A DNA stretch of 61,246 bases from Planctomycetota bacterium. GTDB taxonomy: Bacteria; Planctomycetota; GCA-002687715; DRQF01. The DNA lies in the NCBI GenBank assembly GCA_036479435.1, contig JAZGFI010000145.1, positions 1 through 61,246 of the forward strand, given 5' to 3'. The position numbers were made by a program, and so were the translations under genes. Positions within the stretch are counted from its first letter, which is position 1; each line of letters begins with the position of its first letter. The notes under the pieces are model-generated. The model saw only the letters and a program-made list of their open reading frames with translations, was not told where the DNA came from and ran no database searches. Positions 1-21,500 of this stretch are shown here, piece after piece.

Positions 1-100
1 ATCACTTAGCGAACCCGTCTAACGAGGAGCCGGATGCGTCAATCGCGCACGTCCGGATCTGTGGGGGGCTGGGGAGAAAAATCTCCCTGGTCTACCCGAC
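1..100 (+). mobile_element. 3' end of a group II intron (domain V 27-59, domain VI 63-97 with bulged A94, terminal AC at 99-100); the rest lies outside the window
   Basis: GAGCCGGATGCG-TCAATCG-CGCACGTCCGGATC folds as DV with the AGC catalytic triad and AC bulge. GGGGGGCTGGGGAGA-AAAA-TCTCCCTGGTCT(A)CCC folds as DVI with a single bulged A 7 nt from the end. The sequence ends in the canonical ...CTACCCGAC. Confidence 0.9.
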
Positions 101-161
101 GACTAAATTCTCCCGCTTTTTTAGGTCTGACCTAAAAAAGCGGGAGAATTTAGTCTGACGC
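101..161. repeat. Perfect 27-bp inverted repeat (101-127/129-155) built from GTCWGAC-core repeat units with a 28-bp period
   Basis: gactaaattctcccgcttttttaggtc-t-gacctaaaaaagcgggagaatttagtc. GTCTGAC cores at 125-131 and 153-159, half core (gac) at 101-103. Confidence 0.9.
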
Positions 162-1459
162 CGTGATGCAAATTGGTCGCCGCCAAAATAGCTTGCGAAC
201 TTCAGCACCGTCCCGTCGCCATTGAGGCGCGCGATGAAGGCGTCCTGCCATTTGGATAGCGAGGTCAGAACTCCGGGCGTCCCAGTCGTAGGGGGAATAT
301 CAAAGTGGCCCTGTCGCCCGCGCCCATTGATGGGCTGGAAAGCCGGCGTAAATCCGATGCTGGTGGCTGAGTGCGAAGTTTCGGCGGACGGGGGAACCGG
401 CAGCGCGCCGATCTGGAGAACTTGGGACAGCGCCAGATTTGGAAAGTCCGCAGACTCGCTGCCCGGAAAGTCGTCCGACGACGTGTGACCCGCGACAATG
501 ACGTCGCCGTTCGTGGGATCGACGGCCAGGGCGAGGCCCCGGTCATGCCCGTAGTTGACGTAGGGCTAGGGGAAATGATGGGGCTCGTTGATCGCCGTCG
601 GCCAGGCAAAGGAAGGAAGATTCGGGGGCAGAGGGACCGTGGACCGGGCATGGCTTAAAGGCGAGTCACTTGGGGACAGTTGGATGTCACCGGTGTCGGG
701 ATTCCAGACTTGTCGCCCGCCGCCCAGCCGCGTGATGAACTCGAAAGACGGTGGCGTGGTTGTATGGTCGATCTTGGCAAAAAAAGCGTCGGGGTTCTGT
801 CCGCCGAAAATCACCTGGAAGGGCTGTTGTCCGCCGGGTGCCGTCACCGGGAATCGCTGCTTGGAATGCGCGTGGCCCGTGACGTAAACGAACTGGCCTG
901 CAACTGCGATGTCGTAGATGTAATCCGTTCCAACCCGGCCGGAGAAAAAGTGGCCCAGCACACTTTCGGATCGATAATCAGGGTTCGTTGAGGGTCGTAC
1001 GAGCCAAGCACAAACCCGAACACACCGGCTTTCATTTCTCGAAATTCGCAAGCGACGAGTTCTTTTTTGCCGGCGACGATCTGCCAGGCGACCGGCGCTC
1101 GATCGATCAGAGTAACCTCGCCGATCTTCAACTCGATGTTGCCACTGCCGGCGATCGTTGCCCCAAAAGAAACTCAGGCGCGTGCGGCTTTTTCCATGGA
1201 CTCGGACCGTTGCCGCCTCCGAGGTATCGATGAACCGCAATCCGAGAACCTTGTTCTCAAGGGTCCCTTGCTTAAACCCGATGGCTACCGCGTCCGGTCG
1301 CATCGCAACTTCGACTCCAAGGCCGTGGGCAACGTGGGTGAAGGAGGGATGTGCCGTCCCAAAATTTGGGGAGAAAACTAGATCGACTCCCTCGGGCCTG
1401 CGCCAAGGAAGCGCTGGCGAGACAAAGAGGTAGTAAAAGGGCTCTTAGTTGATTCTCAA
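162..1459 (-). pseudogene. Decayed secreted SBBP beta-propeller / DUF7948-type protein
   Basis: Fragments spread over several frames: signal peptide (QLRALLLPLCLASASLAQA), FSPNFG...FFWGNDRRQW, PVAWQ...GFVLGSYDPQRTLIIDP, and SBBP repeats (IAVAGQFVYVTG, DAFFAKI, DRGLALAVDPTNGDVIVAGHTSSDDFP, DAFIARLNGDGTVLKFASYFGG). Frameshifts near 1395, 1145 and 945-949, an in-frame TAG at 566-568, and a 3' end that runs into the repeat/intron. Confidence 0.8.
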
Positions 1460-18341: not shown

Positions 18342-18377
18342 CGGCGCGGTGTCTAAGGGGTGCCAGGCACCACGCCG
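18342..18377 (+). terminator. GC-rich hairpin downstream of the giant lipoprotein gene, containing the palindrome GGTGCCAGGCACC (18359-18371)
   Basis: cggcgcggtgtct ... aggcaccacgccg can pair with two imperfect positions. It lies between convergent genes and has only a weak T tail. Confidence 0.4.
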
Positions 18378-18447
18378 TCACTTTCCAGTACCACCCTCAG
18401 CGCGGGCCGTGGAGCCTTGTCGGGGAAAAGGGCGACGGGGGGTGGTT

Positions 18448-18499
18448 AAGTGGGAGAAAAGTGTCTGACGAGGAAAAGCGGGAGAATTTAGTCTGACGC
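18448..18499. repeat. Second locus of the GTCTGAC-core 28-bp repeat family
   Basis: aaaagcgggagaatttagtctgacgc is identical to 136-161. GTCTGAC cores at 18463-18469 and 18491-18497 are 28 bp apart. Confidence 0.85.
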
Positions 18500-18511
18500 G
18501 GTATGGCAGGT

Positions 18512-21500
18512 TTACTTTTTTTGGGGCCAGGTGCCTTGGATTTGGCGGGTGTTGAATTTTGATTGCCACTCGCGGGTGAGGGGCGACGCTGTGTCAGGCT
18601 GAGGCGGGTAGTTCTTCATGGCGTGGAAGGGCAGAGGTTTGACCGTCGCGGGGAAGGCCGTGTAGGCGTCCATGTCTTTGCACCAGCCGTCGGCCTTTAG
18701 GAAGAAGGTTCGTTTCCAGCCCTTGGCGAGGGTTGGCAGGCGCGATGCGTCGACTTCTAAGGCGATCTCGTCGCCGTGATTCATCACCACGTAGCGATCG
18801 TCTTGCTTGGCAATGAGCTCGCGCACATCGCCGAAGCGGGTGTAGTTGCCCGCAAGAGTCTTCCAGTCGAATGTGGGGGAGACCCGTTGGTAGTCGTAGA
18901 GCGTGGGATGCCGGCCGTCGGGTGAGTACTCGAGGGGGTAGCCGAGGAAACGCAGTTCAGCGCGATCAAAGGAGATTTGCGTGGTCGTCGTTTCTTGTGC
19001 GGCCACATCCCAGCCGAGGTAGATCCGGTCGATGTAGATTTCAAGATTCGAACGCAAGCGCATCTTGGCCAGAGACTCAAGCGTAAGGTCCGTGATGTCG
19101 AGCGCCATGGTGCGCGACATGCCTGCCGGATATCCAAACTCCTTGAGCGCCGTCTTCCATTTGTTGCCGTCGTGGACGTCGAGACTCAAGGACTCAGCGC
19201 GCACCTTGGCTTGCCATCCGGCAAAGTTGATGTGCGAGTAGGGGTACTCTACCCAGCCGTCGATGAACATGAACAAACGGCTGCTTTCATGCGGCCGATC
19301 GGCGAGGACGGCTTGGGCATCAAAACCGAAGGTCAGTCGGTTTTCTTCCGCAAGATAGCCGACGAAGCGCGCATCGCGGACGAGGCCGCTTTGATACACC
19401 CGGTCGCGCATTGATATCTGCCTAAGAGTGTCCGCGCCTTTGGCATCCCGCGCGTAGCGTGGTGCGTGGTCCTTGCGAAAGGCGAGGCTGCGTCCGTCGG
19501 GAAAGGGAGCGGCCGTCGCCAGTCTTTCATCGGCAAAGACACGGACGTCGGCAGGGTGGGCGACGGCGATCAATGCCAACTCGTCGAGGTAGCAGATCTC
19601 TTCCATCGGCTCGGATATCCGCAACATGAGCTTGCCGTCTTTGGCGGGCAAGTCACCGATACGGACCACTTCGGTCGGGTCCGGCGGTGCGTAGCCATTG
19701 GGGTCGATCAAGAAACCTAGTCCCCCGACGCCCAGAAAGTCGGTCACAAACTCAAACTCGTCTCCCTTCCCGGACCATTTGAAAAGAACCGGGCAGGAGG
19801 AAGCCTTGCGATTGACTTCGACGTATTGGTGGGTCTTGTCGGCTTCGAAGTCCCGCTCGTTCTGCAAGACAAAGTCGGACCAGATGGTTCGGATGTAGTC
19901 TGCGTCGGTTTCAGTTCCCAGCCCAACTTGCAAACGAGGCGGCAGCCCAGCCATGAATCCGTTGGCACTCATGCTGTCGTGGTAGACACGTTTGCTTCCC
20001 GCGGCGACCTCGACTTGCGTGCCGATTCCAAAGTAGTTGCTCCACATGGAGGCGGTGTCGTTGACGCTTTTGCCCCTAAGATCGAGCTTGAGCCAGTGGC
20101 CGAGGCCCTCGCTTTGGTTCAGCGCCATCAGCAGCCCGCCTCCTGACGTCGTCGCCAGCAAGTCCGGGCTACCGTTGTGGTCCAAGTCGAGCGCCAAAAC
20201 GCAGCGCAGATTCGGCGCCAAGCTGAGCGCAGAGCTTGCCGTGAACGCGCCGTCGCGAAAATCGCGGTGAATCTGGAGCTGAGCCAATTCCGTATCCCAG
20301 TGGATTAGGTCAGGGCTTCCGTTCAGATCGACATCGGCGGTGGAGAACAGGTGGTTGCGACCCAAATCTATCGCCGTTTTCGCTCGCAGTGCACCTTGAC
20401 GGGCTGATTCGGGATGTTCATTTTGGACGAACAAGGGGGCGGCGTTGGGGCCGCGCATCAGGATGAGGTCAAGGTCGCGATCTTGGTCAAAATCTTGCAC
20501 CAAGGCGGCGAGGGCCGGGCCGCTACCGCCGATCTTGAGTCCGAAAGGATTGGCGTGGTAACGCCATAGCCGGTCGTTGCTCAGCAAACGGTTGGGCGCG
20601 CCATCGTTGAACTCTAGAATATCGACGTCGCCGTCGCGATCCCAATCGAATACCAACAAGGCGGCGCTGCGTTTAGCGTCACCACCGAAACCAGCCTGCT
20701 CGGCGATATCGGTGAAACTTCCCTCACCGTCGCTATCGTCTTGATAGATCGTCGGGCGGTTGTTGTTGAACAAGTGATTGGGTGCACCCGCGAAGTCGCC
20801 AGGGAACTGCATGGCGTTTTTGGCGAGGGTTCCGACGGCAGGCAGTGGACAAAAACCGGCACTCAAGATGTCGAGGTCGCCGTCGTGATCCGCGTCCACA
20901 ATCTGGGCAAAAAGAGTTAGGGTATCGCCGCCTCCGAGGCTTGTGTCGAGACGAAACTTGCCCTTGTCATTCATAAAGAGCAGGTCGGGCCCCGCACCGT
21001 AGACAAAAAGGTCAGGGTCGCCGTCATGGTCGACATCGCCGAAAACCCCGCTGACCGCAATGAAGTCGCTATCTTTCGGTCGGAGCAGTCCCACTTCGTC
21101 CGTGATGTCTTCAACGCCGCCATTTTTGAAGCGAAAGAGGCGCCCCGCTCCCTCACCGGTCGCCTGGTAGATCTCAACCGTGCCGTCGCCTTCAAGGTCG
21201 TGAATAGCCATTCCTCCGGCGAGACCTCGGGCTACTTCTTCCAGCAAAAACTTACGAAGATCCGTTCCGGCGGCTGCGCGCCGGCCCCAGGGAAATACCG
21301 GCGCCGCTTTGGCGCCGACGAGCTCGGTGGGGGGCGCGAATCTCAAAGCCGCAAGCGCCGGTCGTGCTGCCTTTTCTACCTTGGCATCGCCGAAAGGAGT
21401 GAGCACGCGAATCGCGGACGCATAGCGACCCATGAAGTTGTAAAAGAGGCTGAGCTTTTTGCCGACTTCGGGTTCAGAGCCGCTATAGAGCTTGAAGATA

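Follow-up and report, generated by a model that had tools for sequence, protein, structure and literature searches.

A group II intron copied into the TIR palindromes of a Y1 transposase element in a Planctomycetota genome

The window analyzed here, the 61,246 nucleotides at the start of contig C145 in a 5.47 Mb, 299-contig assembly of a Planctomycetota bacterium (GCA_036479435.1), opens inside the 3′ end of a group II intron, referred to below as intron A. Positions 1..100 (+) hold nucleotides 1932-2031 of its 2031 and are 100% identical to C135:2595-2694. They contain the last codons of an RT/maturase with the stop codon at 7-9 (+), domain V at 27-59 (+) with an AGC triad at 28-30 and a 5-nt loop, and domain VI with its bulged A at 94 (+), seven bases before the intron end. 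A search of the window with the Rfam model Intron_gpII gave a match at 25-100 (+) with 42.9 bits against a cut-off of 40, in agreement with an earlier note on this DNA that had placed the end of domains V and VI at 100 and the start of a repeat at 101. This flank, the 3′ exon, is the inner part of a left TIR arm at 101..124 (+), and its first base, G101, is IBS3 and pairs with a C that is EBS3. The outer part of the same arm, which ends in GCGTCA, belongs upstream of the intron and is found on a different contig, and the contig breaks at position 1 because intron A is a collapsed repeat in the assembly.

Downstream of the left arm, a GTCWGAC core at 125..131 forms the axis of a palindrome where two TIRs meet at their inner units, and is followed by the right TIR arm at 132..164 (-), which carries an empty intron A target on the minus strand at 156|155. 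Positions 101-155 form an inverted repeat, with a stem pairing 101-126 with 130-155 (z = -11.3), and the intact element, as found in an empty copy, folds into a 46-bp perfect stem with a 3-nt loop (z = -16.6). The earlier note had described a GTCWGAC repeat unit with a 28-bp period. Its intact cores at 125-131 and 153-159 are present, the interrupted core would sit at 97-103, 28 bp before the next, and the spacing arises because the TIR has two units; however, a plain 28-bp tandem repeat is not what these cores belong to, and that reading is replaced by the TIR and palindrome structure. The 7-mer GTCWGAC is no commoner in the window than chance (9 matches against 7.96 expected), and the case therefore rests on the junctions found genome-wide. 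Further into the window, an empty solo TIR, made of the outer arm and a degenerate inner 28-bp unit, lies at 18447..18508 (-). Its GCGTCA|G target, at 18494|18493, is perfect and belongs to the strand that intron A disfavors. An unoccupied copy had been proposed at 18463-18499; it is indeed empty, although it is a solo TIR with wider limits (about 18447-18508) and a target on the minus strand.

An arm profile search of the whole genome returned 78 matches, which form 48 clusters; the reversed genome, used as a control, gave none. By a stricter arm rule there are 48 empty arms. There are two Y1 transposase genes, one of which, on C289 (PF01797), is flanked by inverted arms of the intron A target repeat at 21248 (+) and 22382 (-), each composed of an outer unit and a degenerate inner unit 28 bp away. 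In a related genome, G002, a Y1 gene on its contig C208 likewise lies between two inverted copies of the repeat, so that the inversion around a Y1 gene is directly visible in two genomes. A Y1 (HUH tyrosine) transposase element of the TIRYT type has this repeat as its TIR; the dispersed copies are tied to its gene by association, and the family has spread as solo arms and as gene-less perfect palindromes of about 95 bp located just 3′ of genes. These dispersed palindromes would be two TIRs fused at their inner cores. The TIRs next to the transposase gene carry no intron.

This organization resembles that of the TIRtrons or TIRYT elements, which are described in the main text of PMC3733652 as a Y1 gene between long inverted repeats that carry a GGGGWSAS-like motif and are scattered singly, as dimers or in clusters, and which are equated in the relevant part of PMC6006769 with TnpA-Y1 subclass 2.1. 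The GG[CAT]GTCAG of the TIR matches the GGGGWSAS motif at 7 of 8 positions, and the C289 Y1 protein gives a weak C-terminal helix-turn-helix match, to Sigma70_r4_2 at residues 261-290 (E = 0.0024, below cut-off). Assignment to canonical GTAG-tagged or CGTC REP/REPIN sequences was rejected, as the arm end has no GTAG foot and the Y1 protein scores 59.8 bits with NF047646 against a RAYT cut-off of 80. The second Y1 gene (C144:44285-45310; L012) has a repeat family of its own with a GGTGCCWGGCACC core and immediately follows the genes for ATP synthase beta and epsilon; one copy of that core occurs in the window at about 18358-18371, near the solo TIR. Genome k-mer counts also reveal at least two further high-copy repeats, one represented by about 41 copies of a 16-mer, one of them just upstream of the C135 intron, and another with 27 copies of a 20-mer, which resembles a CRISPR repeat.

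The single complete assembled copy of intron A spans C135:664-2694 (2,031 nt) and begins with GTGCG, the GTGYG start that had been expected. The remaining copies are collapsed and visible as contig ends, giving 15 5′ junctions and 14 3′ junctions at which the intron ends are 98-100% identical. Intron A has been copied at least 15 times in this genome, 14 times into one exact spot in the palindrome; both intron ends and some 15 insertions, with the fixed junction GCGTCA|G, are read directly from the contigs. Fourteen of the 15 5′ exons were counted as members of the repeat family, two of them by judgement (C94, with a diverged arm, and C18, with an upstream inverted partner of the C144 3′ flank), and on the 3′ side 13 of 14 exons start with G and agree with the repeat in 9-14 of 14 letters, the C135 flank matching at 5 of 14. 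The proposal that this intron homes into a dispersed intergenic repeat family is borne out by these junctions, and two doubts that accompanied it, that the 5′ exon might not be the missing half of the repeat and that other copies might have unrelated flanks, are answered by the same counts. From their intergenic position the landing sites are expected to be harmless, and the sequences suggest that intron A has been active recently.

Contig ends interrupt every copy except one, as would be the case if a collapsed intron end had been joined to a repeat during assembly, a third doubt that had been raised. This reading is almost certainly wrong. Contigs from four runs of three studies, none flagged as the source of the genome, were compared with the C135 copy: run X3 contains intron A as one contig that begins with the shared GTCA and ends on the last base of the intron, and the same loose contig ends, agreeing with the repeat, occur at 5′ junctions in X3 and X7 and at 3′ junctions in X7, X9 and X10. 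Runs sharing few words were left aside. A related intron, L013, is complete within a 71-kb contig together with both repeat halves, and both sets of junctions are complementary to EBS1 and EBS3. These insertions account for at least 28 contig ends of the assembly. No RNA run contains intron A, the one RNA run sharing 0.07 of its words. The contigs of public runs yielded no empty allele or spliced product, and no joint skipping the C135 intron; such contigs cannot show absence and have no bearing on splicing.

The open reading frame of intron A encodes a 455-aa RT/maturase (TIGR04416, 341 bits against a cut-off of 300) in which Pfam detects RVT_1 only, the endonuclease domain being absent. The RNA is that of a group II intron, with domains V and VI carrying the triad and the bulged A, a 5′ GUGYG and a 3′ AY end. 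A CGC triad is a trait of class C (IIC) introns. The earlier note had argued from the AGC triad that intron A is not of this class, and the 6-bp EBS1, against an IBS1 of 3-4 bp in class C, and the protein tree lead to the same conclusion: the protein is 38% identical to a pSymB protein taken as class C and falls in a separate clade. The geometry of class C insertion was also rejected, since most intron A 5′ exons consist of a stop codon followed by the outer arm only, without an upstream stem-loop; a hairpin upstream of the junction is seen in C18, C94 and C135. In the predicted fold the alpha-prime of intron A lies in a terminal loop of domain Id, and the alignment gives the 5-nt loop of domain V; a terminal-loop alpha-prime and such a loop are given as features of IIE and IIF introns in the part of PMC3753933 that deals with these classes. 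A quick tree of 45 proteins, with one class E reference and none of class F, places the intron A clade as sister to a group containing the class E reference and a second intron of this genome, intron B (joint SH-aLRT 97), with the class D and class C references outside this grouping. This reference is the disrupted intron of pRmeGR4b, which is assigned to class E in the portion of PMC5894124 concerned with it. Intron A is probably a bacterial class E (IIB-like) group II intron without an endonuclease domain, class E being probable rather than proven because the tree has no class F reference.

The pairing of intron A with its target covers seven bases. EBS1, UGACGC, and EBS3, C, are complementary to GCGTCA|G, and the fold of domain I places UGACGC in the Id3 loop and the C in the coordination loop. 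The assignment is supported because the same positions covary with the exon ends in related introns. All 15 5′ exons end in GTCA, 12 as GCGTCA, two as GTGTCA and one as GAGTCA, so that EBS1-IBS1 pairing is perfect in 12, has a wobble in two and a mismatch in one, and the +1 base is G in 13 of 14. The off-family copy on C135 combines a G-U wobble in IBS1 with a mismatch to EBS3. It had been anticipated that the 5′ exon would end in GTCA and complement both EBS1 and EBS2; the first two parts hold, but no consistent EBS2-IBS2 pairing was found, the best contiguous run, whose position varies, being 3-4 bp in 14 of the 15 exons and 5 bp in the remaining one. L013 also lacks EBS2 pairing, and several other relatives of intron A show EBS2 candidates of 5-7 bp. 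Of the 14 5′ junctions for which an ORF was called, 13 have their nearest upstream ORF on the strand of the intron, and 10 of 14 3′ junctions face a convergent ORF downstream. The sense strand upstream of many occupied repeats is markedly C-rich, and the genome-wide skew at four-fold sites on the sense strand is -0.20.

The genome offers many more matches than the intron occupies. There are about 1,620 empty G[CAT]GTCAG sites (1,622), which a crude ORF mask divides into 49 in arms, 237 that are intergenic and 1,336 in coding DNA. With most matching 7-mers in coding DNA and one insertion (C135) outside the family, it might be supposed that intron A inserts at any GCGTCA|G and persists only where the DNA is dispensable, and the section of PMC7306698 on the subject describes hiding in neutral or mobile DNA as a recognized pattern. 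However, 14 insertions lie in family arms, of which 48 are empty, and one lies outside, where there are 237 intergenic non-family sites of the same variants (Fisher p = 9e-10; the mask is crude and the contrast large). Survival alone is on this evidence a very unlikely explanation. Passive amplification, in which a single entry into one TIR element was followed by joint copying of intron and repeat by the Y1 transposase or by recombination, draws on the link between the repeat family and a Y1 transposase gene and appears more improbable still. The intron ends are nearly identical while their host repeats differ, and these hosts comprise three IBS1 variants, solo arms, dimers and shortened or diverged members (C18/C144, C62, C55, C27, C70), the same variants also occurring as empty copies. 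Near-identical introns within diverged repeats whose variants are also found empty indicate separate insertions into repeats that had already diverged.

Occupancy within the family follows the paired sequence. IBS1 is perfect in 12 of 14 occupied family sites and in 8 of 24 empty arms on the favored strand (p = 0.003, post hoc), while against all empty arms the difference is weak (p = 0.06). Among empty arms, perfect IBS1 is found in the 8 of 24 on the favored strand and in 19 of 24 on the other, so that 19 of 27 empty perfect targets lie on the disfavored strand (p = 0.003, post hoc); among solo empty arms alone the strand bias is not significant (8/14, p = 0.18). By a crude codon-skew proxy for replication strand, with each insertion counted on both sides, intron A lies on the leading-strand sequence, equivalent to the lagging-strand template, on 12 of 15 5′-side contigs (p = 0.018) and 10 of 14 3′-side contigs (p = 0.09); for intron B the values are 3 of 3 and 4 of 5. 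These counts suggest that insertions favor the lagging-strand template. The occupancy pattern fits what EBS1-guided, lagging-biased filling would leave, as do the empty targets of the window at 18.5 kb and at 156|155, both on the disfavored strand.

A further reading is that the intron recognizes structure rather than flanking sequence, that is, a DNA hairpin or cruciform or the fork stalling that it causes, in the manner of class C introns at terminators and attC sites. This would accommodate the absence of EBS2 pairing, the strong fold of the intact element, and the fact that inverted dimers contain or adjoin about 11 of 13 occupied family sites, although dimers are expected to be hit more often because each has two targets. 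Terminator-like hairpins also lie about 20 nt upstream of the junction in the off-family copy C135 and in C94. Nevertheless, insertion takes place in the left arm and leaves most of the hairpin on the downstream side, which is not the geometry of class C, solo arms are occupied (C249 and C55, and L013 in G002), and occupancy tracks the sequence of IBS1. We consider recognition of structure unlikely.

The repeat is also occupied by intron B, whose copy on C24 (G000:C24:1947-2, -) is about 1,946 nt long and encodes a protein 40% identical to that of intron A, grouping with the class E reference in the quick tree (SH-aLRT 96). Its three 5′ and four 3′ junctions (7/7 in the repeat; contigs C172, C194, C185, C211, C237 and C247) fall at CCGT|A, on the opposite strand of the same arm and about 10 bp from the intron A site, and its EBS1, ACGGUG, and EBS3, U, fit this site. 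With a second intron on its opposite strand, the repeat is a shared intergenic landing site of introns A and B. The 5′ end of intron B is GAUGCG, one base longer than the usual GUGCG, and the bulged A of domain VI is kept; a degenerate 3′ remnant of this intron lies on C27. The right arm of the window ends exactly at the intron B site, 164|165 (+), and is followed at 165..169 (+) by GATGC, the first five bases of intron B. Such a coincidence has a chance of about 0.001 (post hoc), and 165..169 is possibly the scar of an intron B insertion followed by deletion. Overlapping this end of the arm is a broken convergent ORF at 161..1303 (-), with an in-frame stop at 566-568, a frame that then enters the repeat, and sub-threshold Pfam matches only.

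Relatives of intron A in other genomes show how far this targeting extends. L013 and L124 (G002 and G041, of the same family) encode a protein 73% identical to that of intron A and have the same EBS1 and EBS3 and the site GGCGTCA|G; in G002, 9 of 10 pattern matches are in the repeat family. An intron of Tundrisphaera lichenicola (L049, G042) is 58% identical, belongs to a different subclade and has an EBS1 of UGUCAGA. Three of its four full-length copies are in TCTGAC-core repeats, on the opposite strand of the core, one copy lying in a long repeat cluster and another with a Y1 gene some 90 bp away. The TCTGACCCC-core repeat forms long tandem clusters at G042:C1:327959-328852 and 3455686-3455994, with an intron in the last unit of the first. 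Across the 46 related junctions examined, which are the loci out of 80 with both ends called, less two near-duplicates, the repeat core is present at only three, from two genomes. Lineage-wide repeat targeting was therefore rejected; repeat targeting arose more than once and is not general.

The genome G003 contains a sister TIR family with 45 pattern matches (L202, L213, L218, L230), mostly dimers with variable spacers, and two Y1 homologues; no intact intron was found there, and the flank of the single 3′ intron fragment is unrelated. Searches with Rfam found no introns at the repeat in G003, G004, G007 and G008, genomes that are 81-88% complete. Close relatives of intron A in G006 and G008 (L101, L125, L132, L134, L137) have a different EBS1 and are inserted after GTGCAC, and two 5′ ends among them follow GTGCGC, possibly nested in the start of another intron. 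In Halomonas, an intron at L034:2904 directly abuts the 5′ end of the next in a head-to-tail pair. Further group II introns or fragments of the present genome, on C57, C84, C49, C26, C159, C191, C15 and C121, have flanks unrelated to the repeat.

We consider it quite likely that intron A spreads by endonuclease-independent retrohoming into DNA that is single-stranded at the replication fork, guided by EBS1 and EBS3, with the intron protein also recognizing the TIR flanks. By analogy with RmInt1 and RmInt2, for which this route is described in the pertinent parts of PMC4615759 and PMC5894124, a particle of spliced intron RNA and protein would reverse-splice into single-stranded fork DNA, with the lagging-strand template preferred and nascent DNA serving as primer. 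The homing site coincides with the outer core of the TIR of the resident Y1 element, and as each strand of the palindrome carries a target, one of the two would always be in the favored orientation. Seven paired bases are insufficient to pick the sites, and the protein therefore probably reads, by elimination, further repeat bases at about -10 to -7 and +2 to +10, beyond the paired stretch. A difficulty for this mechanism lies in the dimers, where folding of the single strand would bury the target in the perfect 46-bp stem and should make IBS1 inaccessible. Intron B would act likewise through its own EBS1 and EBS3 on the other strand of the same arm.

The closest precedent is RmInt2, a class D intron of Sinorhizobium meliloti GR4 that homes into the inverted repeats of ISRm17. 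The account of its targets in PMC4615759 places all RmInt2 copies in these repeats, which is said to double the targets and to guarantee one on the lagging strand. Intron A differs in that it groups with class E and is without EBS2-IBS2 pairing, that the target is the TIR of a Y1/HUH element, mainly in gene-less palindromic derivatives, and that two distantly related introns use opposite strands of one arm. It shares with the class E introns S.me.I4 and Cl.be.I2, as characterized in the relevant sections of PMC3753933, PMC5894124 and PMC3552965, an RT/maturase without endonuclease, a IIB-like RNA and the EBS1 and EBS3 contacts; however, the conserved EBS2-IBS2 pairing described in those sections and thought to serve homing is absent from intron A and L013. 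No description of a repeat family as the target of IIE introns was found in those sections.

As in the class C and IIC-attC introns treated in parts of PMC4424553 and PMC7923331, there are many intergenic sites at inverted-repeat DNA and no EBS2, whereas the AGC triad, the length of EBS1, the protein clade and a fixed insertion sequence inside the arm, instead of a position just after a stem-loop, set intron A apart. Host palindromic repeats also serve as landing sites for the insertion sequences that target REP sequences (PMC1525189, in the part on these targets), although those are protein-guided DNA transposons and intron A is an RNA-guided retroelement. The word “intron” is absent from the main text of PMC3733652, which does not describe TIRs as intron homing sites. 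In the literature searched we found no report of a group II intron homing into REP, REPIN, MITE, TIRtron or TIR palindromes, and supplements or the target tables of intron databases could hold a precedent.

According to the relevant passage of PMC4424553, three target strategies are known among these bacterial elements, namely sequence homing sites, terminators and attC sites. It is tempting to see TIRYT or REP-type palindromes as a general fourth class on which class E introns converge repeatedly, on either strand and at different offsets. EBS2 of intron A would then have been replaced by reading of the TIR sequence or hairpin, possibly on single-stranded or nicked DNA made by Y1, in a nested three-tier system of transposase, repeat and introns. 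This wider picture is speculative, and we hold it to be doubtful.

What we describe is a variant of ordinary retrohoming. Particular to it are the link to TIRYT elements in two related genomes, the use of one arm by two introns on opposite strands, the missing EBS2, and an occupancy that follows strand and IBS1. By aiming sequence homing at a dispersed palindrome family, an intron gains intergenic sites by the dozen, on both strands. One such family is used by two introns, and a third lineage has reached a similar core independently. The genome provides a system for asking how seven paired bases without EBS2 select about 60 of over 1,600 matching sites, and it links the spread of introns to the life cycle of Y1-transposase repeats.
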